64,000 nt of DNA from Minisyncoccota bacterium. GTDB taxonomy: Bacteria; Patescibacteriota; Minisyncoccia; Phycocordibacterales; UBA9973. Below, piece after piece: positions 36,908-63,488 of the stretch. Below the pieces are notes generated by a model, which did no database searches, had not been told where the DNA came from, and saw only the letters and a program-made list of their open reading frames with translations. The stretch lies in assembly GCA_041663005.1 (NCBI GenBank), contig JBAZRK010000002.1, positions 64,740 to 128,739 of the forward strand. Direction: 5' to 3'. How positions within the stretch are numbered: position 1 is the stretch's first letter; each line of letters opens with the position of its first letter. The position numbers were made by a program, and so were the translations under genes.

Positions 36908-37693
36908 TTATTTGCCAGATGCTTGATCGAGCTTCTTCGCCTCCGCCCAAGCGAGCTCATAAATCTTTTTCATCGCATCAGCAATCTCAGAACTCTCGAT
37001 AATAATCCCGAGCTTTTCTCTCCAAGAAGCAATCATAACTTTATCATCATAGATATTTATTTCTGGTGAAAAAATAAAATTCTCTTTCGGTACTAAAGCC
37101 GTTTCTCGCATTTCCTCTTTATCAAATTTTTTCCGCTCACAACCCTCTTCTGTATTCGGTACAATCGCTCGAATGCTTATGCCCGCGCTTGCCCGTCGCT
37201 CATAGTATTTCGGGAAGTAGCCGGGGAGTCCTCGATGCATATCTCCCACGCTGGCATACGCCCGAATGGGCTCGTTCGAAGTGAGGGTATCTTCATAAAC
37301 TTTCTCCATCCCCTCTTCGCCTTCATAAAACATCACCTTCGGTCGATTGCCAAAATTGTGAATTGCTTTGAGCTGGGGAATTAAAATTGTTTCTGCTTCT
37401 CTTAGTTCCTGGTTTTTCTTTTTTATTTGCCCAACCAGGAGAACTTTTAAATTATCGGGCGACTCCGCCACGTATTCTTGTTTCGGTTCCTTGCCGGAGA
37501 GGGTCACCAGCCCCTTGTCGAAGAGTACGCCTAAGATTTCATACACAGTTGTCCTGTGGATATGCGCCGCCCGAGCTATTTTCGAGGCGGTACCCCGCCC
37601 CAAAGCAAGCGTTGCTAGATACACACTGGCCTCTTTGTCGGAAAAACCCATTGCTCGAAGTACCTGCTTGAGCTCAGTTGATTTCTCACTCAT
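36908..37693 (-). CDS. TrmB-family transcriptional regulator
   Basis: N-terminal wHTH (KEASVYLATLALGRGTASKIARAAHIHRTTVYEILGVLFDKGLV) plus a C-terminal TrmB-like domain. Confidence 0.55.
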   Translation of the reverse strand: MSEKSTELKQVLRAMGFSDKEASVYLATLALGRGTASKIARAAHIHRTTVYEILGVLFDKGLVTLSGKEPKQEYVAESPDNLKVLLVGQIKKKNQELREAETILIPQLKAIHNFGNRPKVMFYEGEEGMEKVYEDTLTSNEPIRAYASVGDMHRGLPGYFPKYYERRASAGISIRAIVPNTEEGCERKKFDKEEMRETALVPKENFIFSPEINIYDDKVMIASWREKLGIIIESSEIADAMKKIYELAWAEAKKLDQASGK

Positions 37694-37833: not shown

Positions 37834-39573
37834 ATGAAAAAGATCTGCCAAAACTGTGAAGCAGGTTTTGAAATAGATTCTGAAGATCTGAAATTTTACG
37901 CGCGAATTAGTGTCCCGCCTCCGACTTTCTGCCCACAGTGCCGGTTGGCTCGCAAGCTTATCTGGCGCAACGAGCGCTCGCTCTATAAAAGAAAGTGTGA
38001 CTTGTGTAAGAATGACGTCATCTCGATGTACAAAGCGGATGCCCCCTTCCCCGTCTACTGCCACGACTGCTGGTGGAGCGATGAGTGGAGCCCGCTAGAA
38101 TACGGGCAAGACTACGATTTCAATCTTCCTTTTTTTGAACAATTTAAGAGCTTACTCGAGAAAGTCCCACGCGCAGCTTCGTATGTCACCAAAAATTTGC
38201 AAAACGAGTATGTAAACTACACCACCCACACCAAAAATAGTTACTTGTTGTTCGGTAGCTGGTTTAATGAAAATTGTGGATACGGACAAACAGTTATGGA
38301 GAGCAAGGAATGCTGGGATTGTCTTTTTATGAGGAAGGGCGAACTTTGTTTTTCCTCAATGGATTGTCAGCAGTGTAGTAATCTGCTTTTTAGCCGAAAT
38401 TGCCAGGGCTGTATCGACTCCGCATTTTTATATGACTGCAGAAATTGCCAAAACTGTCTTTTCAGCTGGAACTTGCGAAATAAAAATTATCATGTCTTCA
38501 ATCAACCTGTTTCTAAAGAAGAATTTGCCCGCCTCAAGGAAGAGATGCTCAATTCGGCAGAAGCCTTAGAAAAAAACTGGGCAAATTTCAAAAAAGCTGT
38601 GCAGGAAGAAGCCATTCATAAATATATGACAGGCGAGCATAATCACAATGTCTCGGGTGAATTTATTTCGAACTGCAAAAACGTTCACTCTTCTTTCTTT
38701 ATAGATAAAGGCGAAAATGAAAAGTACGCTGTGCGCGGTGGAGTAGGACAAAAAGATTCAATGGACGTATTCGGAGTACACGCGGGAGAGCTCGCTTATG
38801 AATGCAACAATATCGACTTCTCTTCACGTTGCTTCTTCGGCCTAAATGGGGAAAACAATCTGGATTCTAGATACATCATAGATTGCGACAGCCTAAATAA
38901 TTCTTTTGGTTGTGTTTCACTCCGAAAAAATGAGTATTGTCTGCTAAATAAACAATACAGTAAGGAAGAGTATGAAAAAATTTTACCCCAAGTCGTGGAA
39001 CATATGAAAAATATGCCGTATGTTGATAAAAATAATAAAACTTACGGATATGGTGAATTTTTCCCCGCAGATCTTTGTCCTCACGCTTACAACGAAAGCA
39101 TCGCCCAAGAATGGATACCTCTTTCTGGGGACAAAGCTGTAACACTCGGCTATGGCTGGGATGATTCCCAAGACAAAAATTACGTCCCTACAAAAAGTTG
39201 GAAAGATCTTCCTGGAACCTTGGCGGAAACAAGCGATTCTATAACACAAGAAATTATTTTGTGTCAGGCGTGGGATGAAGACAAGGTAGCTGCCCAAAAT
39301 CACAAGTGCACCAAAGCTTTCAGAATCATCCAAGATGAACTTATTATGTATAAAAAGTGGGGGTTGCCTTTGCCTAGAAAATGCCCCAATACTAGAAATT
39401 TTGAAATGTTGCAGCTTCGCAACAAGCCTAATTTTTTCCATCGTGTATGCATGTGTGAGAATACGAATCACGAACATAGTGGCAAATGCCCGAATGAATT
39501 CGAAACCAGCTACGCTCCGGACCGCAAAGAATTAGTTTATTGTGAAAGTTGCTATAATAAAGAGGTCTACTAA
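37834..39573 (+). CDS. Cysteine-rich protein of 579 aa with zinc-ribbon-like N- and C-terminal modules and internally duplicated Cys-repeat core (paralog 1)
   Basis: C..C...F......L.FY....VP.P.FCP.CR...R...RNER.LYKR.CDLC...PFPVYC..CWW.D.W motif at N-terminus, with a related module at C-terminus. The middle has C..C repeats every 13-15 residues, and NxQYSKEEYEK occurs twice. Confidence 0.7.
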   Translation: MKKICQNCEAGFEIDSEDLKFYARISVPPPTFCPQCRLARKLIWRNERSLYKRKCDLCKNDVISMYKADAPFPVYCHDCWWSDEWSPLEYGQDYDFNLPFFEQFKSLLEKVPRAASYVTKNLQNEYVNYTTHTKNSYLLFGSWFNENCGYGQTVMESKECWDCLFMRKGELCFSSMDCQQCSNLLFSRNCQGCIDSAFLYDCRNCQNCLFSWNLRNKNYHVFNQPVSKEEFARLKEEMLNSAEALEKNWANFKKAVQEEAIHKYMTGEHNHNVSGEFISNCKNVHSSFFIDKGENEKYAVRGGVGQKDSMDVFGVHAGELAYECNNIDFSSRCFFGLNGENNLDSRYIIDCDSLNNSFGCVSLRKNEYCLLNKQYSKEEYEKILPQVVEHMKNMPYVDKNNKTYGYGEFFPADLCPHAYNESIAQEWIPLSGDKAVTLGYGWDDSQDKNYVPTKSWKDLPGTLAETSDSITQEIILCQAWDEDKVAAQNHKCTKAFRIIQDELIMYKKWGLPLPRKCPNTRNFEMLQLRNKPNFFHRVCMCENTNHEHSGKCPNEFETSYAPDRKELVYCESCYNKEVY

Positions 39574-39574
39574 C

Positions 39575-41254
39575 ATGGAAAAGCCCTGTCAAAGCTGCAA
39601 GAAAGAATTTGGGGTTCGCAAAGAGGACCTCGTTTTCTACGAGCAGATAAAGGTTCCGCCGCCCAATTTCTGCCCCGATTGCCGGATGATGCGGCGGCTC
39701 GCATTCCGAAACGAGCGAACTCTATATAAACGCCCTTGCGACTTGTGCAAGCAAGACGGCGTCTCACTCTACCCTGCCGGCACGCCCTTCCCTGTCTATT
39801 GTCAGAAATGCTGGTGGGGAGACGGCTGGGATCCAACAGCTTACGCTATGGACTGGGACAAGTCGCGTCCTTTTTACGACCAATTCCGAGAACTAAAAAA
39901 TAAAATCCCGCGCATCGGCCTTTTGGTTATCGACTGCGTCAACTGCGATTACACTAACAATACAGGTGAGTGTAAAAATTGCTACCTGATTTTTGCGGCG
40001 GAAACGAATGAGGACTGTATGTACGGTAGATTGATACAGCGCTGTAAAAATTCTATGGATTGCGCCTTCCTGTATGATTCCGAGCTTTGCTACGAGTGCG
40101 TAGACACCAGAAAATCATTCAAATGTATGTATAGTGAGCGTTTGCTGGAGTGCGTGGATGTAATGTTCTCTTTCGATATGCGCAATTCGCAAAACTGCAT
40201 CTTCTGCGTAAACGGACGTAACTTAAATTATTGTATTGAGAACGTACAGTATAGTAAGGAAGAATATGAAAAGAAGAAAGCTGAAATTTTATCCTCTTAC
40301 GAGTCCATCGAGGAGGCTAAGAGAAAATATAACGATTTGCGGTCAAAAGCTTTAGTAAAATACGCGGTCGCTACGAAGTGCAACGACGCCACCGGTGACT
40401 ATATGTACAATTGCCACGAAGGCGTAAACATCTTCGACGCATCCAATACCAAAAACTCTTCCTATGTTGCGGACGCAGAAGACGCGCTCGACTGCCAAGA
40501 TTGCAACAACTTATATTTCAAACCAGAACGCCTCTACAACATAATGGGCACACTTCAGAGTACCAACTGCATCGCGGGGGTATACATTATGTATGGCAAT
40601 GAAGTGCATTACTCCGACAGTTGCTACAACTGTGTTAGCTGTTTTGGGTGCGTTGGTTTGAATAAAAAGAATTATCACATCCTGAACAAAGAATATTCCA
40701 AGGAAGAATACCAGAAAATTAAATCCGAAATCGTGGAACAATTAAAAAAAGACGGCCTGTACGGTGACTTCTTTCCTCCGGAACTCTCCCCTTTCGGATA
40801 CAATGAAAGCTTGGCTCAAGAATATTATCCATTGTCGGAAAAAGAAGCCGGAGAAAGAGGATTTAACTGGCAAAAGCAAACTTCCGGCACTTATGGCAAA
40901 GAAACCTTAAAAGAAAACGAAATCCCCGCCACTTTAGGCGAAGCCACAGAAGATATTTTAAACCAAATACTTGTCTGCAAGGATTGCAAAAAGAATTTCC
41001 GTATCACTCGCGGTGAATTGGATTTCTACAAGCGCATGAATCTCCCCCTACCGCACAAAGATTTCGAATGTCGACATCAAGACCGAATGAAAAAGAGAAA
41101 TCCTCGCCAACTCTGGCCACGTAGCTGTATGTGTACGCTCAAAAACCATCAACATAAAGACAAAAACTGCGAAAATATTTTTGAAACAAGCTACTCCCCC
41201 AACCGCCCCGAGACAGTCTATTGCGAACCTTGCTACCAACAAGAAGTTTCTTAG
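39575..41254 (+). CDS. Cysteine-rich protein (paralog 2), tandem duplicate of the upstream gene
   Basis: Same architecture, about 40 percent identical by eye. AAGAGG Shine-Dalgarno lies before the ATG at 39575, directly after the paralog 1 stop. Confidence 0.7.
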   Translation: MEKPCQSCKKEFGVRKEDLVFYEQIKVPPPNFCPDCRMMRRLAFRNERTLYKRPCDLCKQDGVSLYPAGTPFPVYCQKCWWGDGWDPTAYAMDWDKSRPFYDQFRELKNKIPRIGLLVIDCVNCDYTNNTGECKNCYLIFAAETNEDCMYGRLIQRCKNSMDCAFLYDSELCYECVDTRKSFKCMYSERLLECVDVMFSFDMRNSQNCIFCVNGRNLNYCIENVQYSKEEYEKKKAEILSSYESIEEAKRKYNDLRSKALVKYAVATKCNDATGDYMYNCHEGVNIFDASNTKNSSYVADAEDALDCQDCNNLYFKPERLYNIMGTLQSTNCIAGVYIMYGNEVHYSDSCYNCVSCFGCVGLNKKNYHILNKEYSKEEYQKIKSEIVEQLKKDGLYGDFFPPELSPFGYNESLAQEYYPLSEKEAGERGFNWQKQTSGTYGKETLKENEIPATLGEATEDILNQILVCKDCKKNFRITRGELDFYKRMNLPLPHKDFECRHQDRMKKRNPRQLWPRSCMCTLKNHQHKDKNCENIFETSYSPNRPETVYCEPCYQQEVS

Positions 41255-41367: not shown

Positions 41368-42636
41368 GTGATATACAAAAGTAAATTATTCTATACCACT
41401 CGAGAAGTGGCCGAAATTCTAAAAGTTTCTTCCGTCACCATTTTCAAAAGAATTAAGGGTGGCAAAATTAATGCCGAAAAAATCGGCAAGAATTACCTCA
41501 TCCCCCGAAGTGAGCTCGCTCGTTTTGGAATAAAAACCGAAAATAGCTCAATGGAAATCTCAGAAGTACCTGAGGCAAAAACACTGGCTAAAGAAATATC
41601 TGATGATTTGAGAGGCACTACTTTTATACGTGATGGGAAAACAGTAGTCATCAAGCATGAAGATCTTTTCAAAACTCGATTTGACATAGAAGGCCGAGAT
41701 TTAATTGTGGGCTTCAACGAACCTGCTTTCAAAAAATCAAAAGATGATTTGACGCTCGGAGATCTCGATTCCCCTCTGAATGCCAGGCTTATCACGTATT
41801 TTTTGCCAGCAATACAAATCGCTCTTATGCAAAAGAAAAAACCTCGTCTGATTGTAGTAACTGGTATTAATGCTGCTCTAAAATATAATGCACAAAACGA
41901 AGAGCAAAGGAAAATAATGTACCGTAATAATATGCTGAAACTTAAGTTTATCGAAGAAACATTAAATAAATTCTTTCCTAATGCTTTTTCTATTATTGAA
42001 ACTCGTCTGGCATACGATTTTATGAAAATTTCTGAAGATAAACTGGATAAACTGTGGCAAGTTTTCATAAAGCGGTTCCCAGAAAGAATTGCGCCCCTGT
42101 CGGAAAGCCTGAAACTATTCAGCTCGAGCGGTAACACAAATTATTCTAATGAAAATAAACTTCGCGAGTCATTTCGTTACGCAGTACTTCACTTGTTTGC
42201 ATTGGGAGATGTTAATTTGGATTACGATTTCGTTCATAATGAAAAGGGTTATTGTTCCATTGGGGAGCACCAAGAGCTTATTTTCAATATAGTCCGCGAA
42301 GTTGGCTATGAGATTTTAAAGGATGTCGGTGAAGTAGTATTTGAGCGTGAAGTACACTGTTTTAAAAATCCAAAAATTGTAATTGAAGACAAGGGCCACG
42401 TACCGCCACCATATAACGGCTCTTTTAGAAGTAACGGGAACAGAACTTCTATTGATGAGGTAACTTACAAAAATAGCCGTGAATTGTCGTATTATGACAC
42501 CCGCCCCAGGCTCAAGCCACATATGGATTATCTATATAAAATCATTCCTAGGGAAACTTTTGAAAAATACTGGAAGGAATACAAACCTCGCTATTTAGAA
42601 TTAGAAAAAAGATACAACGAGGCTTATGGAATATAA
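41368..42636 (+). CDS. Hypothetical protein with an N-terminal excisionase/MerR-like HTH (HTH_17-type)
   Basis: TTREVAEILKVSSVTIFKRIKGGKINAEKIGKNYLIPRSEL resembles a DNA-binding excisionase-family HTH. The remaining roughly 370 aa are unrecognised. Confidence 0.55.
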   Translation: MIYKSKLFYTTREVAEILKVSSVTIFKRIKGGKINAEKIGKNYLIPRSELARFGIKTENSSMEISEVPEAKTLAKEISDDLRGTTFIRDGKTVVIKHEDLFKTRFDIEGRDLIVGFNEPAFKKSKDDLTLGDLDSPLNARLITYFLPAIQIALMQKKKPRLIVVTGINAALKYNAQNEEQRKIMYRNNMLKLKFIEETLNKFFPNAFSIIETRLAYDFMKISEDKLDKLWQVFIKRFPERIAPLSESLKLFSSSGNTNYSNENKLRESFRYAVLHLFALGDVNLDYDFVHNEKGYCSIGEHQELIFNIVREVGYEILKDVGEVVFEREVHCFKNPKIVIEDKGHVPPPYNGSFRSNGNRTSIDEVTYKNSRELSYYDTRPRLKPHMDYLYKIIPRETFEKYWKEYKPRYLELEKRYNEAYGI

Positions 42637-43201
42637 ACTCCTTCTCGGCACAACGGCGGTAGTAATAGAATTGGCGAGCTATGCCATTTATTTTTTCGGC
42701 ATCTGGAAAGGCAAAACCAAACCACATGCTTTCACTTGGCTGGTGTGGGGAATTTTGAATGTTGTGGCTTTTGCTGCTGTCTTAATATCCGGCGGTGAAG
42801 CTGGGTCTTGGGTTCTTGGAGTAAATGCACTTGCTTGCCTTATTATTTCCGGCATCGGTTTCTACCAAAAACACGTAGTGTACGATACACATGATTGGCT
42901 AGCACTTTTAGGCGCCTTGGTTGGAGTATTCTTGTGGTGGCTAACTTCTAATCCCCTATACGCGGTGATACTAGTATGCCTGTCCGACGGTATCGGATCT
43001 GTGCCTATATTTAGGAAAGCCTACCGCGCGCCCTTCGAAGAAAACGTGCCGGCGTTTGCGGTTGGAATATTATATTACCCTCTGGCAATTTTAGCGCTCG
43101 AGTCACTTTCTCTCACCACTTGGCTTTATCCTGCGTTTGTAATACTGCTTGATGGTGCTCTCGTAATCTTAATTCTCGCCCGCCGAAAACAATCCAGATA
43201 G
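42626..43201 (+). CDS. Hypothetical polytopic membrane protein
   Basis: Five to six predicted TM helices. Its stop codon is embedded in the 43195-43219 palindrome. Confidence 0.5.
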   Translation: MEYKLLLGTTAVVIELASYAIYFFGIWKGKTKPHAFTWLVWGILNVVAFAAVLISGGEAGSWVLGVNALACLIISGIGFYQKHVVYDTHDWLALLGALVGVFLWWLTSNPLYAVILVCLSDGIGSVPIFRKAYRAPFEENVPAFAVGILYYPLAILALESLSLTTWLYPAFVILLDGALVILILARRKQSR

Positions 43202-43221: not shown

Positions 43222-44799
43222 TTACTTCCTAACCCCGTGTTTTTGGTGCAATTTTCCCACTTCAGCTTCTTCAAGTTCTTCTTTTTTCTCTTTGCCGCGC
43301 TCGCCGAGCGTGCGAAGTTCATCATCGCCAAGCATATTTAGAGATTTTACTAGTTCGGATAGGTGCTCCACGGTGTTTTTCTCCGGCGCATCAAGCACCT
43401 CCTCGAGAAGTGCGTGGAGAATCCACCCCATTCGAGGTCCAGGCTTAATGCCTAGCTCTTTTTGCAAGAATCCCCCGTCAATTTTAAGCTGTGAAACAGA
43501 AATGGGGTCGCGGAGAGCTTCTTCCACCATTGCGAAATACTTCCTGAGGCGATAAGGCGCTTCCTTCTTCTTCATTCCCACCCTGTCGCACTCACGGACA
43601 TCCATCAAAAGCCAAATATCATCTTTCCCAACTTTCGCAATTATTCGACGCACGGCGGAGAGAGTAATTTTTTCAGTATCAGAAAAAAACATATGGTTCC
43701 GCACCATCTTTTCCACAAGTTCAATTTCATCTCGCGAAAATTTCAAACGCTCCATAATCTTTTTCGCCATTCGCGCGCCCACAACTTCGTGGCCGTAAAA
43801 TGTGTACATTTTCTTGGCCGAGCCACGAGGCTTCTGCGAATGGTTGACGTTGCTCTGCAGGAAATCCTTCGCAGAAGCATCTGGCGAGGCAACAGACAAA
43901 CGCCTCGTTCGCGGTTTGCCCACGTCGTGGAACAGTGCCGAAAGCCTTATGCCTAAAGGCCAATTCTTGTCTGCCGCATGCTGAGCTGCAAGTAGCAAAT
44001 GATTCCAAACATCATAAATATGTTCCCCGGATTGATCGCAACCTATTCCCTCTTCTAACTCCGGAATTATGTATTTGAGAATTCCTAATTTCTGTAGCAT
44101 CACAATTCCGCTTGCAGGATTTTCCGACATAATTATTTTCACAAACTCGTCGCGAATTCTTTCAGCGGAAATTTTTTTTATTAACTCCGCATTTTTCACA
44201 ATACTTTGCGTTGCTTCTTCGGACACAGAAAAATCGAGTTGGCAAGAGAAGCGAATTGCTCGGAGCATTCTGAGTGCATCTTCAGAAAATCTATCGTCGG
44301 GGTTTCCTACTGCACGAATAGTTTTGTCCTTTATGTCCTTTATGCCGTCGAACAAGTCTACGAGCTGTCCGTTAGAGTTTAAAGCTATCGCATTAATGGT
44401 AAAGTCACGTCTCTTAAGGTCGTCTTCTAGCTTGTCGCTAAATTTTACCTCATCTGGGCGCCTAAAATCGCTGTATTTTGCCTCAATTCTGTAAGGAGTT
44501 ACCTCAATTATATTATAGGTGAGTGTTTCAGGTGAAACATCGGACTTCCCTGTTTCTCGTGAAACGCACACCCCGACTGTGCCAAAACTATTTTCATACA
44601 CTGTTTTCTCAAACAGAGCCATTATTTGCTCTGGCGTCGCGTTCGTAGTTACATCCCAGTCTTTGGGCGTTCTGCCAATCAAAAGGTCTCGAACACACCC
44701 TCCTACCAGGTACGCTTCAAAATCCGCTTTTTCCAGAGCAGTTGTTACATATGAAACATCGGCAGGTACTTTCGATATTAAATTTTTATAGGAGTCCAT
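43222..44799 (-). CDS. cca: CCA-adding enzyme / tRNA nucleotidyltransferase with HD domain
   Basis: Pol-beta NTase motif GGCVRDLLIGRTPKDWDVTT, and an HD domain (HD...DVGK). Confidence 0.85.
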   Translation of the reverse strand: MDSYKNLISKVPADVSYVTTALEKADFEAYLVGGCVRDLLIGRTPKDWDVTTNATPEQIMALFEKTVYENSFGTVGVCVSRETGKSDVSPETLTYNIIEVTPYRIEAKYSDFRRPDEVKFSDKLEDDLKRRDFTINAIALNSNGQLVDLFDGIKDIKDKTIRAVGNPDDRFSEDALRMLRAIRFSCQLDFSVSEEATQSIVKNAELIKKISAERIRDEFVKIIMSENPASGIVMLQKLGILKYIIPELEEGIGCDQSGEHIYDVWNHLLLAAQHAADKNWPLGIRLSALFHDVGKPRTRRLSVASPDASAKDFLQSNVNHSQKPRGSAKKMYTFYGHEVVGARMAKKIMERLKFSRDEIELVEKMVRNHMFFSDTEKITLSAVRRIIAKVGKDDIWLLMDVRECDRVGMKKKEAPYRLRKYFAMVEEALRDPISVSQLKIDGGFLQKELGIKPGPRMGWILHALLEEVLDAPEKNTVEHLSELVKSLNMLGDDELRTLGERGKEKKEELEEAEVGKLHQKHGVRK

Positions 44800-44808
44800 T
44801 TACCTTTG

Positions 44809-44880
44809 TGCACCCGGAGGGATTCGAACCCCCAACGACAGTTCCGAAGACTGTTGTGATATCCATTTCACTACGGGTGC
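44809..44880 (-). tRNA. tRNA-Arg (anticodon TCG)
   Basis: Cloverleaf with acceptor gcacccg/cgggtgc, anticodon loop cTTCGga and T-loop ttcgaat. CCA is not encoded. Confidence 0.7.
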
Positions 44881-45013
44881 AGGATTATTTAATAATACTT
44901 CATTATTTTACACTATTTAAAAAATATTGGCAAATCATGCTTATTTTACAAGGTGAATTGATAATTGCATTAACCCTATATTAATTATATAATACAACAG
45001 TATTTTTTTAACT

Positions 45014-45084
45014 GCGGTCATGGTTTAGTGGTAGAACACGTCCTTGCCAAGGATGAGACGGGAGTTCGATTCTCCCTGGCCGCA
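45014..45084 (+). tRNA. tRNA-Gly (anticodon GCC)
   Basis: Acceptor gcggtca/tggccgc, D-loop with GG, anticodon loop ttGCCaa, T-loop ttcgatt. No encoded CCA. Confidence 0.75.
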
Positions 45085-45322
45085 CTTCGACAGACTCAGC
45101 ACAAGCACCTCAGGTGTCCTTTACTTTCTTCCCATAATATAAGGATTTTGTGGAAAACTGGGGATAACTATGTGAGTAATGGGTATAAAGGACAGTGAAA
45201 AGTGCTGTCTTTGAAGAGGGATTTTAGAGAATTTAGCTTGTTAAATAAGGATATTATAGTAAAAGACATCGAAAATTGCTATTTTGTTTCACGTGAAACG
45301 TGTTTCTTATGAAACAACACTA

Positions 45323-45733
45323 ATGCCTAAGGTTTTTACCTCAAAAAGCCAAAAAACTGGAGAAATCGGTGAAAATATAGCCGTAAAGTTTCTCATGAAA
45401 CAAGGATTTTCCATAATTGAGCGTAATTACACTAAAAAGTGGGGTGAGATAGATATCATAGCAGAACGTACTGGTAAACTGCATTTTGTGGAAGTTAAGT
45501 CAGTGTCAAAGCCTAACCTCGAGGGTGTTACACGGGAAACACTTGATCAGTACCACCCTGAAGACAATATGCATCCGTGGAAACTTAAGCGGTTGTCTCG
45601 GACAATTCAGACATACCTAGTGTCGCAAAAAGTGCCAGACGATACAGAATGGCAGGTGGACTTACTAGTAGTATTTCTAAACCTTACGGACAAGAAAGCC
45701 CGCGTAAAAGTAGTCAGCGATATAATTTTATGA
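45323..45733 (+). CDS. YraN-family (UPF0102) predicted endonuclease
   Basis: GEIGENIAVKFLMKQGFSIIERNY...GEIDIIA pattern of UPF0102. The ATG at 45323 is preferred. Confidence 0.7.
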   Translation: MPKVFTSKSQKTGEIGENIAVKFLMKQGFSIIERNYTKKWGEIDIIAERTGKLHFVEVKSVSKPNLEGVTRETLDQYHPEDNMHPWKLKRLSRTIQTYLVSQKVPDDTEWQVDLLVVFLNLTDKKARVKVVSDIIL

Positions 45734-45789
45734 TATATTCAAATAGCTATAAGTGTAAACGGGCTTGCCCGACAAAGCTTTAGCATCGG

Positions 45790-45860
45790 CGGGCCGTAGT
45801 ATACCGGTAGTACAAGCGCTTTGGGAGCGTTTAGACTGGGTTCGATTCCCAGCGGCCCGA
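45790..45860 (+). tRNA. tRNA-Pro (anticodon TGG)
   Basis: Acceptor cgggccg/cggcccg, anticodon loop ttTGGga, T-arm ctgggttcgattcccag. Confidence 0.7.
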
Positions 45861-45905
45861 CAAGTTGAGGTTTTTGCGGGCTTGCCCGCCGAAGCCTTGG
45901 CGCAG

Positions 45906-45976
45906 GCGGGATTAGTTTAATGGTAAAATAACAGTTTTCCAAACTGTGGTTAGGAGTTCGATTCTCCTATCCCGCA
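45906..45976 (+). tRNA. tRNA-Gly (anticodon TCC)
   Basis: Acceptor gcgggat/atcccgc, anticodon stem acagt/actgt with loop ttTCCaa, T-loop ttcgatt. Confidence 0.65.
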
Positions 45977-46047
45977 CAAAAAATTTCTCTTTTAATTTTG
46001 CCACTTTTTGCAAATAATTTTATTTAATATACTATTAATCCATAATT

Positions 46048-46791
46048 ATGACGTACATATATGCCTTCGGTAGCGTTATAGTGGTGAGCCTGGTCTCAAT
46101 GATCGGAGTTTTCACTTTGTCTATAAAAGAAGCCGCTCTTAAAAAATATATTTTTATTTTTATTTCTCTCGCCGTCGGCGCGCTCCTGGGTGATTCATTT
46201 ATTCACCTGATTCCGGAAGCATTCGAGAGTGGTGTTGGTAATGTGTTGGTAAGCATTTTAATTATCGTCGGAATTCTAATCTTTTTTATTCTGGAAAAAT
46301 TCTTGCACTGGCACCACCACGGTGAAGACGAAAGCGAGGACTCTATTCATCCAGCAGGGAAGCTAATTCTCCTCTCCGATGGCGTCCACAACTTCATCGA
46401 CGGCATCATCATAGGCGTGAGCTTCCTTGTAGGACCCCACGTAGGGATTGCCACGACTATTGCGGTCATATTGCACGAAATACCCCAAGAAATAGGGGAT
46501 TTCGCCGTTTTGCTTCATTCCGGCTATACCAAATCGAGAGCCCTCTGGCTTAACTTCTTGTCCGCTCTTGCGGCAGTGTTCGGCGTTGTTATAGCCTTTC
46601 TTTTAGGTGAGGCTGGAGAAATTTTTACGCTCTGGATTCTGCCAATTGCCGCGGGGGGGTTCATATACGTCGCCGTCGCTGACCTCATCCCGGAGCTCCA
46701 TAAAACAAAAGAAGCAAAACATTCTTTGCTTCAAATTATCGCCGTTGTAGTGGGCGTCTTGTCTATGGTTGCCTTAGTGGCGCTTGAATAA
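46048..46791 (+). CDS. zupT: ZIP-family zinc transporter
   Basis: Eight TM segments with His-rich loop HWHHHGEDE and the HEIPQEIGDFAVLL ZIP signature. Confidence 0.8.
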   Translation: MTYIYAFGSVIVVSLVSMIGVFTLSIKEAALKKYIFIFISLAVGALLGDSFIHLIPEAFESGVGNVLVSILIIVGILIFFILEKFLHWHHHGEDESEDSIHPAGKLILLSDGVHNFIDGIIIGVSFLVGPHVGIATTIAVILHEIPQEIGDFAVLLHSGYTKSRALWLNFLSALAAVFGVVIAFLLGEAGEIFTLWILPIAAGGFIYVAVADLIPELHKTKEAKHSLLQIIAVVVGVLSMVALVALE

Positions 46792-48289: not shown

Positions 48290-50704
48290 ATGGACAACAG
48301 AGTTCCCAGAAATGTTGTGGATATGGTAGAAATCAACTGCAAAAACTGTGGTTATTCGGCCCATATCGTTGCAGCCCCTAAATGTCCGAATTGCGGCTGG
48401 CCGTTTAGTAAGCCTATCCCCAAAAAAACTCCGCCCGCAGAGAAAAAACCTAAGCCTCAAAAGCTGTTGGGTACTTCCTTGAAGGAAAAGCCTCAGGAAT
48501 CTCGCGCTTCCTTGGAAGAGCGATTAACATACCTAAAAAGACTGGGAAGAAAAAATAAAAGAAATAAGAAAAAAGAGGAAGACCCGAAGAAACAAGAGGA
48601 GATAAAAAGAATCGAAGCAGCCATTGCAAAACTGGATGTGGAAACAGGAGCAGGCGCTCGTGCTGAGGCTGTTGCTCCAACACAAGAAACACAAACCGAA
48701 AACCCGGAACTACCTTCGACACCTGCTCCCGAAACCGCCACGCAAATAGATGAAGCTAGAAAAGAAAGAGAAGAAGCTTTGGCACAACTTAGAAAAACTA
48801 TTGACGATGCGAATCAGATAATTATAGGAAATAAGAATAGGGAACAAGAAATATTGGCGCGCCTTAGAGAAATAGAAACGGGAAGGGCGAGAGCTCCATT
48901 AGTTACAGCAGAAACAGAAAATTTTTCCACTGATTTTATTCAAGATAGAATTCTAAAGTTATTCGCGTCTTTTGAGAAAGTTGAGAAAGTTAAAAAAGTT
49001 GAAGTGAGAGGTGAAGGGAATAGGGTCTCTTTGGATATAATTGTTACTGCGAAAGGAGAAGATATTGGAATAAAGGCAGATGTTGAAAATGCTCGTGGCA
49101 CACTCATAGCTGAAAATTTAAAAATTGAAGCAGGGATACTCACGAGAAATTATTTAAAACTAAAGATTAAACCGAAGCTTGAAAAAATAGAAAGTTTGCT
49201 TAGGGAAGAGGTAGAAAAGCAGACGGGTAAAAAGGTTGCGGGGATAAAGATAGAAAACGGTCAGCTCAACGTAAATTTTGAGGCGCAACCCTTGACGGTG
49301 GAAGGATTGGAAACAAAAGGTGAAAGTGGTGAAGAAAAACAATTGCGGGAAGAGTTAGCGGTAATCGAAAAAGATACGGCTCAGGCAAAAAAGGACTATC
49401 AACGAGCACTTGATGCCCTTGCTGCGACCACCGAGGCTGCGACCCCAGAGACACAACAAGATACAGAAAAGGAAGAAATCGAAAAACAAGAAGAGATTTT
49501 AGAAAAAGCTGTGGAGGAAGTGAAGGATTTGCAAGAACTTTTAAGTGCGCTAAGGTCTGTGGATTTTGTATACAACCGATCAGGCGAAAAATCCAGCACC
49601 GAAGATATGGCTCGCGGAATAGAAAAATGCTTGGAGGTTATAACTGACCCCTCTGCAAAATCCCCGCTTCCGGCAGAAGGAATAGATTATTATCTCTCTC
49701 ATTCAAATGTGACCCGAAGATTTGAGATACGCGATAAAGCAAAAACGTTTCTGCTAGAAATACAGGAGTCCGTATTCGCAGAAAAAGAGAATAAGGCAAA
49801 AGCTGAAGAGCGGGAAAAATCTCTGGCGCAACTCAATGAAACTATCGCTACAATAAATGAAAGGGTAATGCGGAGAAATGAAGACCGGCAGGCAGACGAT
49901 GAGCTGATTGTGCGACTAGAAAAAGAACTCGCAGAGCTCGAGGGTGGAAGTACGGGGCTCCTGCCTTCGGCGGAAGTTGAAAAAAGGGCAAATGAAATTG
50001 ATGGTGAAGTAGAAACCTTGTGGGAGACATTGAACAAAAAAATTGCAGAGTATAACGCTCTGGGAGCTTTTCAGATTTTTGCAAAATTAAGACTGCGTGA
50101 CGAAATAGATAGAATTCGGGAGCAGCAAAGAGAAAAAAGGTGGGCACAGCATCAAGCGTGGAATGAATTTCATGAACGGAGAGGGGTAGAACAAATGGAA
50201 CAGGAAGAAGCCGAAAAAGAAAGGCAAAAAAAAGAAGAGGAAAATGGGCAAGAACGTATACAGAAAATTGAGGAGGATAAAGAAATAAATCCGTTTAAAT
50301 ATTTCGCGCTAGACAAAATGTCCCCTGAGGTGTTCGATATAATTTTTGGAGAGCAAAAAGAAGCCGCAAGCCTAGAAATTTTGAATAAATTTGGTGAGAC
50401 GGGAAAAGAATTACAGTTTTGGCAGTTTAATTCTTTCTCTCCTATGCAGGGATATTTTGTAAAATTCAGCTCAAATGGTTTCTTGACCCAGTTGCAAAAC
50501 CCAAACGAAGTCACGGGAGAAGAAGAAGGAAAAAGTGTTTTATACACAGAAAGTCCAAAGGCAAAATATAAAGTCATCACCCCGGGGTGGAAATTTATAA
50601 AAGATAATCTTAGTTATAAAGAGGCACAAGAATTAATGATGCGATCTGCTCAAGAATACCAAGAAAAACTGCTCGCCGAATTTGAGGCTGAAAACAAACA
50701 ATAA
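48290..50704 (+). CDS. Hypothetical large coiled-coil protein with an N-terminal zinc ribbon
   Basis: CKNCGYS...CPNCGW ribbon followed by a K-rich basic segment and a long E/K-rich coiled-coil. 804 aa. A TGgTATAAT promoter lies upstream. Confidence 0.6.
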   Translation: MDNRVPRNVVDMVEINCKNCGYSAHIVAAPKCPNCGWPFSKPIPKKTPPAEKKPKPQKLLGTSLKEKPQESRASLEERLTYLKRLGRKNKRNKKKEEDPKKQEEIKRIEAAIAKLDVETGAGARAEAVAPTQETQTENPELPSTPAPETATQIDEARKEREEALAQLRKTIDDANQIIIGNKNREQEILARLREIETGRARAPLVTAETENFSTDFIQDRILKLFASFEKVEKVKKVEVRGEGNRVSLDIIVTAKGEDIGIKADVENARGTLIAENLKIEAGILTRNYLKLKIKPKLEKIESLLREEVEKQTGKKVAGIKIENGQLNVNFEAQPLTVEGLETKGESGEEKQLREELAVIEKDTAQAKKDYQRALDALAATTEAATPETQQDTEKEEIEKQEEILEKAVEEVKDLQELLSALRSVDFVYNRSGEKSSTEDMARGIEKCLEVITDPSAKSPLPAEGIDYYLSHSNVTRRFEIRDKAKTFLLEIQESVFAEKENKAKAEEREKSLAQLNETIATINERVMRRNEDRQADDELIVRLEKELAELEGGSTGLLPSAEVEKRANEIDGEVETLWETLNKKIAEYNALGAFQIFAKLRLRDEIDRIREQQREKRWAQHQAWNEFHERRGVEQMEQEEAEKERQKKEEENGQERIQKIEEDKEINPFKYFALDKMSPEVFDIIFGEQKEAASLEILNKFGETGKELQFWQFNSFSPMQGYFVKFSSNGFLTQLQNPNEVTGEEEGKSVLYTESPKAKYKVITPGWKFIKDNLSYKEAQELMMRSAQEYQEKLLAEFEAENKQ

Positions 50705-50708
50705 ATTT

Positions 50709-53030
50709 ATGGATCAAGAACCACCTAAAGATATAAACAAGGAGGAGCGAAAAAGAGAGCTGCAAAAACAACTTGCGGAAGCCAGAGACCGGCAGAGACA
50801 ACGCGATGACGCAGATCGAGATGACAGCAGAGAGCTTCATAAAGCTGAGCAAGAGCGAGCTGCGTTAATGGGTACCGGGAACCCTTCAGGATATCCTGTG
50901 GATAATAATTTTAGCCCCCGAGAAGAAAATGAGTGGTACAAAGATACGCCTACGCGTCAGGGTATGGACTTAGAGGCCCTAGCCCAGAGAATACAAAGTG
51001 AAATCACTGGCCTGCCAGAAGAAGAAAGGCAGCAACGCGCTATTGAGTTGTTGCTGGCTGAAAAGGAAGCCTGGAACGAGGAACAGGGAGGCGCAAAAGA
51101 AGGTCTGCGCAAATTTGATAAATGGTGGGATGGATTAGAAAAAACAAAAGGCGGCGTGGCTCTAAAAGCGCTAATAGGCGGAGCGCTAATAACCGCAACG
51201 ACCGTGGGGCTCGGCGTAGCGCCTGTATCCCTTTTGGGTGTGGGTTTTAGGCTCACGAGTCGTGTAGCTGCTGCAACGGGGTTAAACATGGCCCTCACTT
51301 CCGAGCGTGTGCGCAAATGGCTCACTCCCAAAGAGGACACTGGCAGTCCCAAAACTCTTAAGGAAAAAGTGTTGACTGTGCAAAATTTAAAATACGCGGC
51401 AATGATCGGCGGTGCTGGTCTTATATTTATGATGGGCGGTGCCCAAGTAGCTGTAGTAGGTGCAACCGGTATGGCCCTTCGATTCGGAGTCAACCAGATA
51501 ATCGAAAAGCGAACTAAAGCACTGGAAGAAAAGAGGAAAAATCTTTCTATTCGTGCGGAAAGTTTGCAAGACAATTTCGACATCAATGCTCTAGCAGCAC
51601 ACCTAGAAGTTTTTGAGGAAGAATATGGAAAATTATCGGCCTCTCTCACTCGCAATAAGTGGGCTAAAAATTTAGTAAATGGAGCAATAACCGTCGGGGT
51701 CGGCCTGGGCACTATGGCCGTAGCACATCATGGCGCAGATACTACACATGCACCTAAAGAGGTTCCGGATAAGCCGGCGGCAACTGTCACGCACCCACAC
51801 CAGCCGGAAGTCACCACCAGGCCTACGGCCGAACCCGTAGTGCAACCAAAGGAAGAGGTAGATACGTCCAAAGTCACGGATTGGAAAAAAGTTTATCCTC
51901 CAGGGCAACCAACCCATCCGATTACACCAGAAGTTACATTAAACCCGGATGCGATTATCAAGCCAGGTGATGGCATAGAAAGCGCATTTATAAGACAAAT
52001 TGAACACAATGACGCTCTGGCCACGAAACTCGGCTGGGACGGTGAAAGTGATTTGCATAAATTCGCGCAAGGCGAGGCACATCGCATGGCACGCGACTAC
52101 GGATACATAGACAAAACTACGGGAGAAGAAGTCCGGGTTGAGTCTGCGGGAAAGATAGCATATGAAATAAGAACGGAGGGGGATAAAATTGAAGTGATAG
52201 AGAAAAGTATCAAAGGAGATATTCTAGATACCCACGAGAAAGGCAACGCGTTTGAAAAAGAAACTGATAAATATGAAAAGTTGTGGACTAAACCAGAAGA
52301 AACCGCTAATAACATCCTCAAACCTACAAACACCTACGGAGACATGGCGAAGGATGCTCCTGGAGCCTTGCCAGAATCCGCTGACACCACCCCAGCAGAA
52401 GAAGTAACGTATCAAAAGAGCGAAATTTATAAGGATGACGCGTGGCGAAATAGACAAGCAAGCGAAGAAGAGCTTGAACGCACGCGAAGAGAACTCCTTG
52501 AAAAAATGGGAACGAAAACAGAACAGCCGCACACAGAAACATCTATGAATGGACACACGGAACCATCCCCTGGACCTGAAGCACAAGTGGGCGGGCATCT
52601 ACAACCTAAGGGAGATTATTCTGGAGACCTTGCTCCACGCCAGGTGGAAGCGTTACGTCTTCATTCCGAATTCATACAGAACAATAACACTTATCTTTTA
52701 TCTGATTCCGAATTGTGGGAAACCTATGAAGCTAGTAGGTCAGATTTACGTTTTCTGTTCAGTAGTGAAAATTCCATTGCTTGGCACGAACTCGATGACA
52801 TGAATGCAAGTGCATTATTAACCCAGGTAGACTCTGGCACGGATTCAGCGCAGGATCACTTAGTGAGATATTTACATGTACTCCAGAATTTCACTGAGCC
52901 TAAGCTTGAACCAAGGCGCGGAATCTTAGGCATCGGGGCTGAACACGTTAAAGATTTCATGGCCCGGGCAATGATCCAACTAAAACATAATGGAAACCTG
53001 GAAGTTTTCCAAGAATCCATTAGGAAATAA
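50709..53030 (+). CDS. Hypothetical large charged protein with two central TM segments
   Basis: Charged coiled-coil N-terminus and hydrophobic stretches (ALIGGALITATTVGLGVAPVSLLGVGF, AAMIGGAGLIFMMGGAQVAVVGATGMAL). The ATG at 50709 is preferred. Confidence 0.55.
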   Translation: MDQEPPKDINKEERKRELQKQLAEARDRQRQRDDADRDDSRELHKAEQERAALMGTGNPSGYPVDNNFSPREENEWYKDTPTRQGMDLEALAQRIQSEITGLPEEERQQRAIELLLAEKEAWNEEQGGAKEGLRKFDKWWDGLEKTKGGVALKALIGGALITATTVGLGVAPVSLLGVGFRLTSRVAAATGLNMALTSERVRKWLTPKEDTGSPKTLKEKVLTVQNLKYAAMIGGAGLIFMMGGAQVAVVGATGMALRFGVNQIIEKRTKALEEKRKNLSIRAESLQDNFDINALAAHLEVFEEEYGKLSASLTRNKWAKNLVNGAITVGVGLGTMAVAHHGADTTHAPKEVPDKPAATVTHPHQPEVTTRPTAEPVVQPKEEVDTSKVTDWKKVYPPGQPTHPITPEVTLNPDAIIKPGDGIESAFIRQIEHNDALATKLGWDGESDLHKFAQGEAHRMARDYGYIDKTTGEEVRVESAGKIAYEIRTEGDKIEVIEKSIKGDILDTHEKGNAFEKETDKYEKLWTKPEETANNILKPTNTYGDMAKDAPGALPESADTTPAEEVTYQKSEIYKDDAWRNRQASEEELERTRRELLEKMGTKTEQPHTETSMNGHTEPSPGPEAQVGGHLQPKGDYSGDLAPRQVEALRLHSEFIQNNNTYLLSDSELWETYEASRSDLRFLFSSENSIAWHELDDMNASALLTQVDSGTDSAQDHLVRYLHVLQNFTEPKLEPRRGILGIGAEHVKDFMARAMIQLKHNGNLEVFQESIRK

Positions 53031-59381: not shown

Positions 59382-59390
59382 AGACCGAGA

Positions 59391-63038: not shown

Positions 63039-63488
63039 TTGAGCTACCCAATGCAATTCAAGGTCCCTCAATTTTTAGACATAGAAGATAAAATTTTCGG
63101 CCCTTTCACTTTTCGGCAGTTCGTTTATCTTGCCGGAGGGGCGGGGTTGTGCTTTGTGTTATACAGACTCCTGGGATTACTCTGGAGCTCGCTGCCAATA
63201 TTGTTCGTCGGCGGGTTTGCTGGAGCTCTAACTTTCTACCGTCCGAACAATAAACCGTTTATCAATATGCTTGAAGCGGGAATAAAATATTTATTTCAAA
63301 GCAAGCTGTATATTTGGGAAAGACGGATGGGGCAAGCCGGCCAGGCCCGAGATTCAAAACAAGAAGCACTCACTGCGGCTCAGACATCTAGCGCCACTCA
63401 GGTTGGAGCTCGCCTAACAGGGGAAAAGCTTCGAGACCTTGCTTGGAGCTTGGATGTATTGGATTTAAGTAGGGAAAAGAAAAACTAA
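63039..63488 (+). CDS. PrgI/VirB3-like small membrane protein
   Basis: Short N-terminus then FGPFTFRQFVYLAGGAGLCFVLYRLLG and a second TM segment. Size, topology and position immediately upstream of a VirB4-like gene match PrgI/TcpE/VirB3-type proteins. Confidence 0.5.
   Translation: MSYPMQFKVPQFLDIEDKIFGPFTFRQFVYLAGGAGLCFVLYRLLGLLWSSLPILFVGGFAGALTFYRPNNKPFINMLEAGIKYLFQSKLYIWERRMGQAGQARDSKQEALTAAQTSSATQVGARLTGEKLRDLAWSLDVLDLSREKKN

Follow-up and report, generated by a model that had tools for sequence, protein, structure and literature searches.

The window analysed here is a stretch of 64,000 nucleotides (nt) from the genome of a Minisyncoccota bacterium. It contains two adjacent genes for large, cysteine-rich proteins, the open reading frames (ORFs) ORF1 (37834..39573, + strand, 579 amino acids (aa), 34 Cys) and ORF2 (39575..41254, + strand). 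Both belong to a very large family, called F proteins hereafter, that is reciprocally linked by gene neighbourhood to soluble ATPases resembling VirD4. The window and ENA contig ERZ27249449 k141_1396074 do not differ over the 21.7 kb compared, and ORF2 is 100% identical to an NCBI entry, 'hypothetical protein WCT29_02965 [Candidatus Paceibacterota bacterium]'.

A pair of old paralogues

ORF calling of the window placed the stop codon of ORF1 (TAA, 39571-39573) one base before the ATG of ORF2 at 39575, and an AAGAGG sequence was found 8-13 nt upstream of this ATG. The 1-nt gap and the separate Shine-Dalgarno sequence of the second gene, both reported in a first model reading of the DNA (the original prediction), were thus borne out. 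That reading gave sizes of 579 and 570 aa. The first is correct, but 570 aa is the length of ORF2 from an alternative GTG at 39542, with which the gene would overlap ORF1; the 1-nt gap goes with a protein of 559 aa. Since nearly all orthologues of ORF2 (60-88% identity) are exactly 559 aa long, and given the AAGAGG upstream, the ATG at 39575 was retained as the start. The two proteins are 38% identical over approximately 590 columns, that is their whole length (E 3e-134), so that their paralogy, also predicted, is clear. AlphaFold2 (AF2) models of both were obtained, with a predicted local distance difference test score (pLDDT) of 80.8 for ORF1 and 82.3 for ORF2, and a predicted template-modelling score (pTM) of 0.83 for each.

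A collection of 5.8 billion proteins was searched, and two query searches returned 6230 and 5673 relatives. At 50% identity and E<=1e-30 there were 2183 cluster representatives, nearly all full-length, and the family was present at 584 or more places in species-representative genomes. Record titles named Parcubacteria-type lineages (Nomura-, Lipton-, Giovannoni-, Jorgensen-, Staskawicz-, Sungi- and Magasanik-bacteria, Paceibacterota, Minisyncoccia); others read 'uncultured Candidatus Saccharibacteria' or were generic labels. One record (L019) is labelled Burkholderiales, yet its gene layout is that of the Parcubacteria loci. Judged from these records, the family is confined to Parcubacteria (Paceibacterota/Minisyncoccota), bacteria with tiny cells. 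No relatives were found in IMG/VR viral contigs or GenBank phages (E<=1e-3), and the flanking genes are housekeeping genes; a phage or mobile origin was therefore ruled out. In the source records the proteins are named 'hypothetical protein' or 'zinc-ribbon domain containing protein', and a full-text literature search found no account of the family.

The organisation of the genes was studied in 82 F-centred loci, in which ORFs were called afresh and searched with hmmsearch. Two or more copies were present in 51 of the 82 loci, with a maximum of 11 copies in 21.7 kb at a single locus, and two overlapping loci (L012 and L016, JALLOO010000001.1) together carry 15 copies in 29 kb. In each of the 85 adjacent F-F pairs the two genes were co-directional, and the gap between them had a median of 7 nt, so that the 1-nt junction of the window follows the family norm.

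Copies in an array are old. Their median best identity was 43% inside the locus versus 58% to another genome, and for 97% of the arrayed copies the nearest relative lay in another genome, not in the same array. This difference rules out a recent tandem duplication as well as an expansion driven by an arms race. The pair of the window had been described as a further duplication, which holds, except that the duplication is old and not recent. An attempt to sort the copies into orthologous groups by single-linkage clustering gave a continuum and was dropped.

Within the groups of ORF1 and ORF2 orthologues, the central repeat segments R1 and R2 (described below) are as conserved as the terminal zinc modules (identity 0.62-0.69). 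Between the two groups, the terminal modules N1, N2 and C2 retain 0.51-0.61 identity, whereas R1 falls to 0.37 and R2 to 0.25. This is the pattern to be expected of a shared handle joined to a paralogue-specific body, and because the surfaces of the repeats are conserved within groups and divergent between them, it is these segments that would give each paralogue its specificity.

Neighbourhood of the family

Clustering of the ORFs in the F-centred loci revealed that the dominant neighbour from outside the family is a P-loop ATPase of ~490 or ~700 aa. It matches the Pfam families T4SS-DNA_transf, DUF87/HerA, TrwB_AAD_bind and TraG-D_C and, below the cut-offs, the NCBIfam models TraD, VirD4-like CD1115 and CedD. 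Such an ATPase, similar to type IV coupling proteins (T4CP), was present in 28 of the 82 loci. Twenty-three of the 44 ATPase copies lie directly beside an F gene, all of them co-directional with it, and the gap to that gene has a median of 61 nt. No transmembrane (TM) segment is present in the two main ATPase classes, and a third class of ~450 aa has one.

The reverse test was done on an independent sample of 80 metagenome loci centred on the ~490-aa ATPase. F genes were found in 58 of them, and in 33 of the 39 loci that were at least 12 kb long, at 1.9 genes on average. Chance adjacency would be rare, at about two T4CP genes per ~1-Mb genome by a rough estimate. The ~490-aa ATPase itself is strongly conserved, with 78% mean column identity and more than 200 invariant columns (L058:6787-8268 and 17 others), which far exceeds what is usual for conjugative coupling proteins. 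A 2025 survey counted 5,713 VirD4-type T4CP homologues in 2,918 Patescibacteria genomes; just 148 of them were near virB4, and its authors state that exaptation 'cannot be ruled out' (PMC12102498).

Three layouts were recognised. Layout I reads GrpE-F-CutA-PaaX-like(-)-DnaK-ATPase700-F(n)-ATPase490-DnaJ-(F)-membrane protein, layout II ATPase460(TM)-x-ATPase490-F(n), and layout III ATPase500-(F)-CutA-x-x-ATPase750-x-F. Among the 39 long ATPase-centred loci, CutA was present in 17, DnaJ in 16, DnaK in 14 and a small membrane protein in 9. Layout I was observed in Nomurabacteria-type genomes (L041, L074, L037, L080, L126-L163). There, dnaK and dnaJ are on the same strand, and between them lie two genes for VirD4-like ATPases together with one to three F genes; the PaaX-like regulator is divergent from dnaK, and grpE-F-CutA lies upstream. 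The window, with its F pair followed by a membrane gene, corresponds to the tail of layout I.

Domain architecture of the F proteins

The architecture was examined by hhalign comparison of slices from a 49-sequence family alignment, and Cys conservation was measured in 189 full-length members of the related loci. Homology was recovered between the first 95 residues and the last 115 (probability 99.1%, E 2e-18), N1 corresponding to C1 and N2 to C2 (E 1.4e-8 for N2 versus C2). Similarly, R1 (110-245) is homologous to R2 (255-395; probability 99.5%, E 3.8e-23). These homologies define a fixed order, N1-N2-R1-helical hairpin-R2-mid-C1-C2, which is common to both proteins. The original prediction had held that each protein is an internal duplication and that its C-terminal end carries a module related to the N-terminal one. 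Both duplications and the related end module were recovered, but a simple two-fold tandem order was not, the succession of parts being Zn-R1-R2-mid-Zn.

In ORF1, all parts being on the + strand, N1 (aa 1-48, 37834..37977) consists of a predicted zinc finger of the treble-clef type, CxxC-x24-CxxC, followed by an Arg-rich helix (pLDDT >90), and N2 (aa 49-95, 37978..38118), the homologue of C2, holds a second four-Cys site (C55/C58/C76/C79). The predicted solenoid R1 (aa 124-222, 38203..38499) is made of about eight 12-residue units with Cys or Ser at every third residue. It is followed by the helical hairpin (aa 223-262, 38500..38619, DSSP helices 228-239 and 242-259), which opens with the first N.Q.SKEE[FY] linker, and by R2 (aa 263-372, 38620..38949), the most divergent part between paralogue groups. 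An acidic 'mid' domain with the motifs GEFFP and YNE[TS][IL]AQ[ED][YW] comes next (aa 396-470, 39019..39243, pLDDT ~90). The last part, C1 and C2 (aa 471-579, 39244..39570), comprises a zf_Tbcl-like module, which carries an insertion and has lost one ligand, and after it a zf_Tbcl_2-like module. In ORF2, also on the + strand, R1, hairpin and R2 span aa 124-371 (39944..40687), with short strands every ~12 residues in the AF2 model, and the mid domain, C1 (CKDC...C499) and C2 span aa 393-559 (40751..41251).

Each repeat copy closes with an N.QYSKEEYEK helix. The linker had been said to occur twice per protein, as NxQYSKEEYEK; it does, but the first copy of ORF1 is degenerate (NQPVSKEEFAR). In the mid domain, seven residues are invariant in the 49-sequence alignment (G407, F410, P411, Y419, N420, E421 and W442), and the median net charge is -6. 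The termini and the mid domain were modelled with pLDDT >85, and the repeats with 60-72, in both proteins. A TM-like segment was absent from all 209 family proteins checked, ORF1 included, and no signal peptide was predicted, so the F proteins are probably cytoplasmic.

Predicted zinc modules at the ends

The Cys of N1 (C5/C8/C33/C36) are present in 97% of the 189 members, and those of N1 and C2 together are 97-99% conserved. The N2 Cys (C55/C58/C76/C79), in contrast, are present in just 59-82% of the paralogues. As the four-Cys site of N2 is missing from ~40% of paralogues, some of these probably carry three zinc ions instead of four. C1 has C468/C471/C499 in ORF2 and, in ORF1, a C-x14-C pair without the fourth Cys; the alignment column of ORF1 T520 is a Cys in 85% of the family. 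Conserved Arg residues eight positions apart follow the second knuckle of N1 and of C1 alike.

Two Pfam families recognise these ends. zf_Tbcl (PF13451, cut-off 24 bits) matched the homologues P0032 (25.3 bits, aa 4-41) and P0100 (26.1 bits), and at E<0.1 it matched eight of the 49 full-length members. For the proteins of the window, the match to ORF2 stayed at 15.3 bits (aa 465-501, E 0.02) and ORF1 gave none. zf_Tbcl_2 (PF23477, cut-off 27 bits) matched P0083 (38.7 bits, aa 540-570), P0095 (31.1 bits) and in all 14 of the 49 members, at the extreme C-terminus; neither ORF1 nor ORF2 was matched, and C2 of ORF1 aligns with the homologues that pass. Membership of the window proteins is thus assigned through homology, since homologues pass the cut-offs and they themselves remain below. 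The CxxC...CxxC pattern is common to these entries and to N1, C1 and the extreme C-terminus, and on the strength of these matches the end modules are 'probable treble clef' finger domains with putative zinc binding. The Pfam entries cover a domain of ~40 residues whose function is not described; they include neither the 560-580-aa architecture nor its centre. Foldseek matches in BFVD were limited to small zinc-finger proteins, among them phage 'zinc-ribbon domain proteins'. Searches of PDB sequences with ORF1 and with the 49-sequence profile gave a sole, insignificant match, LIM-like and to C2 (E 0.33).

Four Cys pairs and two likely zinc ribbons had been predicted at the N-terminus. The four pairs are there (C5/C8, C33/C36, C55/C58 and C76/C79), but they probably belong to treble-clef fingers of the PF13451 and PF23477 types and not to ribbons.

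Central repeats

Inspection of the Cys-Cys spacings within R1 and R2 of the 189 proteins showed that 87.5% of 3074 are multiples of 3, the most frequent being 3 (1119), 9 (777), 12 (233) and 6 (226). A BLOSUM autocorrelation likewise peaked at all multiples of 3, with its maximum at a lag of 12. The spacing of 13-15 residues that had been read from the two sequences therefore gives way to a three-residue register with a 12-residue super-period. The triplet can be written [N/D]-[Cys 35%, Ser 26%, Leu/Val]-x, and K/E, N/D and Tyr ladders recur at 12-residue spacing.

Family proteins contain 24-45 Cys. In the centre, the presence of Cys at position i was uncorrelated with that at i+3 (mean phi 0.07), which argues against obligate metal sites, and the occupancy of individual Cys positions varied from 12 to 90%. 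Zinc ribbons or Fe-S sites formed by the central CxxC pairs were ruled out on these grounds, together with the alternation of Cys and Ser. The pairs would instead be interchangeable small residues held in a fixed register, and we read them as core positions.

From the Cys/Ser periodicity we infer that R1 and R2 are narrow beta-solenoid rods of 12 residues per turn with a Cys/Ser-ladder core. AF2 placed short strands every ~12 residues. When both models were compared with the PDB by Foldseek, nothing was found at E<0.1; 19 of the 26 weak hits of ORF2 were beta-helix enzymes (acyltransferases, E 0.17-10), which suggests a solenoid-like geometry of the model and establishes no fold match. If the solenoid is true, it would be a coil of 12 residues per turn, four of them small and facing inward, and with its strict three-residue register and no Pfam or PDB match, the centre is perhaps a new kind of beta-solenoid.

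No sequence match was found over R1, R2 or the mid domain in Pfam, NCBIfam, PADLOC or PDB sequences. The sole library profile that recognised the centre was phrog_15341 (57 of 84 members, best E 3.4e-9), which aligned to aa 119-314 of ORF2 (E 8e-5) with its positions 52-254 of 276. PHROG 15341 is a phage family of unknown function that shares the central region with the F proteins; at 276 positions its profile is shorter than the 560-580-aa proteins and aligns to their centre only.

Likeness to known systems

The insect antifreeze beta-helix (PF02420; TmAFP of beetles) is built of 12-residue Cys-rich repeats, TCTxSxxCxxAx. It shares with the family centre the 12-residue super-period and the small Cys or Ser at each third position. 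PF02420 matched none of the 49 full-length members (E<=0.1) or of eight central segments (E<=5), and Foldseek returned no antifreeze structure from the PDB. Antifreeze proteins are secreted and disulfide-bonded, whereas F proteins are without signal peptide or TM segment, and their Cys are unpaired and can be swapped with Ser.

The only phage hit, a weak one, was a protein of a Campylobacter phage, CPt10_1641 (L085:1411-1836), flagged as PF02420 by its depositors. It has 141 aa, is a near-pure [D/K/N]-C-x triplet repeat with ~30 Cys, and looks, from its sequence, like an idealised version of the central repeat of the family. It aligns to R1 of ORF2 with a pairwise E of 7e-8, but because the database-level E is about 3, the similarity is perhaps compositional. 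Its gene lies between those for a helicase-domain protein and a metallophosphoesterase, with a radical-SAM gene near.

Hexapeptide acyltransferases such as GlmU, LpxA and LpxD, with a [LIV]-G-x4 repeat and an 18-residue turn, dominated the weak Foldseek matches of the ORF2 model and hint at a solenoid-like local geometry in it. All of these matches to the hexapeptide left-handed beta-helix were insignificant (TM-score 0.05-0.10), and the period of the family is 3 and 12, not 6 and 18: there was no Hexapep match in Pfam and no lag-18 peak above the other multiples of 3. For the CR domain of DnaJ, marked by four CxxCxGxG motifs, Pfam gave no DnaJ_CXXCXGXG match; the central motif of the F proteins is [N/D]-C-x, and their CxxC occupancy is unconserved. 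Neither ORF1 nor ORF2 was matched in PADLOC-DB at E<=1.

Type IV coupling proteins (VirD4/TraD/TrwB) come into play through the ATPases, their homologues, which are co-directional neighbours of F genes. Compared with classical coupling-protein systems, the two main ATPase classes differ in being soluble, multi-copy and far from virB4; compared with substrates and accessory proteins of type IV secretion systems (T4SS), the family has no relaxase-type or known accessory domain. The original prediction recognised no family. For the whole protein and its centre this stands, as Pfam, NCBIfam, PADLOC, PDB and Foldseek searches placed neither in a well-characterised family or a class of metal-binding enzymes; for the end modules it does not, given zf_Tbcl and zf_Tbcl_2.

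A possible role with orphan coupling ATPases

We tentatively propose, as possible rather than probable, that F proteins are zinc-capped adaptors or clients of orphan VirD4-like ATPases. The zinc fingers with their Arg-rich helices and the acidic mid domain would form a handle common to the paralogues, for docking or for substrate binding, and the solenoid bodies would confer specificity on each of them. The family would work with soluble, hexameric ATPases of the VirD4/TraD type ('orphan T4CP'), as gene neighbourhood suggests. F proteins would deliver to the ATPase either a polyanionic substrate, such as nucleic acid, or a protein; alternatively, they would themselves be what it handles. In one lineage, this action may take place inside the dnaK-dnaJ transcription unit. 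The window would then hold an 'orphan' pair, the tail of the layout without the ATPases.

Several points weigh against this proposal. No such ATPase lies within the 64-kb window, the arrays L012/L016 and L054 are without one in the sequence examined, and the neighbourhood signal could be partly inherited synteny among related Parcubacteria. The ATPase interaction, the metal content and any ligand are all putative. Treble-clef fingers can bind proteins too, not just nucleic acids, and the family protein as a whole is acidic (median net charge -4). As for the solenoid, it rests on periodicity and on an AF2 region of medium confidence (pLDDT 60-72), with no significant structural match.

A rival explanation places F proteins in the heat-shock and proteostasis machinery or in metal homeostasis. 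Rich in Cys and loaded with zinc, they would serve next to DnaK/DnaJ/GrpE and CutA as holdases, redox sensors or zinc buffers. This would account for the position of F genes between dnaK and dnaJ on the same strand in layout I (GrpE-F-CutA-PaaX(-)-DnaK-ATPase-F-ATPase-DnaJ-F), for the recurrence of CutA, DnaJ and DnaK among the long ATPase-centred loci, for the 24-45 Cys per protein, and for a ZIP metal transporter gene 5 kb downstream of the pair. However, the dnaK/dnaJ context belongs to one of the three layouts whereas the ATPase link is general, and because central Cys are unpaired and freely swapped for Ser, they are unlikely to add metal capacity to the four end sites. Neither the CR domain of DnaJ nor Hsp33 was matched in Pfam, and a search of the window found no CIRCE heat-shock operator. 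We consider such a role unlikely. Export of F proteins to a host as effectors, through the Patescibacteria T4SS and with the VirD4-like ATPases as recruiters, is rather improbable. It would fit the adjacency to coupling-protein homologues, the 209 proteins without signal peptide or TM segment, the PrgI/VirB3-like gene of the window (63039-63488) and the thought that Parcubacteria are host-dependent (PMC12102498). Against it, the paralogues are old and conserved (ORF2 orthologues 60-88% identical at a fixed 559 aa; 97% of arrayed copies closer to another genome), which is unusual for host-facing effectors, the ~490-aa ATPase is soluble with 78% mean column identity, few T4CP genes (148 of 5,713) are near virB4, and export would require the unfolding of four zinc modules and two solenoids.

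Three further explanations were weighed. The homology of the N and C modules, the predicted rod-like middle and the joint retention of many old, co-transcribed paralogues would suit an end-to-end co-assembly through the zinc modules into a heteropolymeric rod or filament, with the ATPases as assembly factors. This polymerisation is a pure proposal, and a quite improbable one: the single-chain AF2 model is compact (pTM 0.83), suggesting that the ends pack within one chain, and a fixed assembly would hardly be expected to vary in copy number from 1 to 15 or more. A system of phage defence or other conflict that pairs diversified sensors with an FtsK/HerA-type ATPase would explain why diversified tandem paralogues adjoin ATPases of the FtsK/HerA superfamily and why the phage family phrog_15341 shares the central domain. 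It is very improbable nonetheless, as there is no PADLOC match and no effector-type domain (nuclease, protease, NADase), the family is absent from viral contigs, and the genes are set in housekeeping surroundings, where synteny is conserved and the orthologous groups are old. Only a slight chance is given to the reading that the protein is an enzyme from some known metal-dependent class and escaped the sequence searches. The mid domain, with its invariant Y419-N420-E421 and W442, is highly conserved, but nothing was found in Pfam, NCBIfam, PDB sequences or Foldseek against the PDB, very few polar residues apart from the zinc ligands are invariant, and the conserved polar residues of the repeats form K/E, N/D and Tyr ladders at 12-residue spacing, as structural solenoids do.

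Returning to the proposed adaptors or clients, a wider form of the idea, which we regard as doubtful, is that the F family, the paired soluble ATPases (~700 and ~490 aa) and often CutA make up an undescribed, Parcubacteria-specific, cytoplasmic ATP-driven machine. Orphan coupling proteins would have been exapted in it, and the solenoids, a new fold class, would be its specificity subunits or clients. Parcubacteria genomes measure ~1 Mb, and in some of them up to 15 or more old, conserved copies of a 1.7-kb gene are kept in one array; such retention implies an important lineage-specific function. The role of orphan T4CP was left open by the 2025 survey (PMC12102498), and the reciprocal neighbourhood link makes the F family a candidate partner, so that the question of the orphan ATPases becomes directly testable.

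Flanking genes and other features of the window

The flanks are as originally predicted: a divergent TrmB-type regulator upstream, and an excisionase-type helix-turn-helix (HTH) protein and a membrane protein downstream. The TrmB-family gene (36908..37693, - strand, PF01978 E 8e-15) has a homologue in three of 81 other loci and is a neighbour in close relatives only; it is probably not part of the system. The HTH_17 protein (41368..42636, + strand, 422 aa) has an excisionase-type N-terminal domain (E 1.5e-9). A weak match to MADS mad1 was noted, and its other ~360 residues match no Pfam or NCBIfam family. The membrane protein (42626..43201, + strand, 191 aa) has six hydrophobic segments, read as six TM segments, and no Pfam or NCBIfam match above cut-off.

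A system including these downstream genes had been suggested and is for the most part not borne out. An operon with the HTH_17 gene is ruled out, as a homologue occurs in just one of the 81 other loci. The suggestion holds in part for the membrane gene, which has homologues in six other loci (L019, L033, L037, L041, L049 and L074), in most of them directly after an F gene, and which is conserved in one lineage; in Nomurabacteria-type loci its place is repeatedly right behind an F gene or dnaJ. Since elsewhere the membrane gene directly follows an F gene, the HTH_17 gene may be an insertion between ORF2 and the membrane gene.

The ZIP-family metal transporter gene lies at 46048-46791 (+ strand; PF02535 in the precomputed contig annotation), downstream of two proteins that would each need at least four zinc ions, and homologues also occur in the closest syntenic loci, L003 and L005. 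After the PrgI/VirB3-like gene (63039-63488, + strand, PF12666 E 2.2e-9) comes an ORF that is cut off by the end of the window (64000); the gene probably starts a T4SS locus of the Patescibacteria type, ~22 kb from the pair. Two large overlapping ORFs of 804 and 782 aa at 48290-53030 (+ strand) have no Pfam match, and the 804-aa product, an uncharacterised zinc-ribbon-headed protein, opens with two CxxC pairs (INCKNCGYSAHIVAAPKCPNCGW). At 57186-61817 (+ strand) lie two further ORFs (731 and 808 aa) whose products have hydrophobic N-termini, are not matched in Pfam and may be surface proteins. Four tRNA genes (Arg-TCG, Gly-GCC, Pro-TGG and Gly-TCC, 44808-45977) adjoin the gene of the CCA-adding enzyme (43222-44799, - strand).

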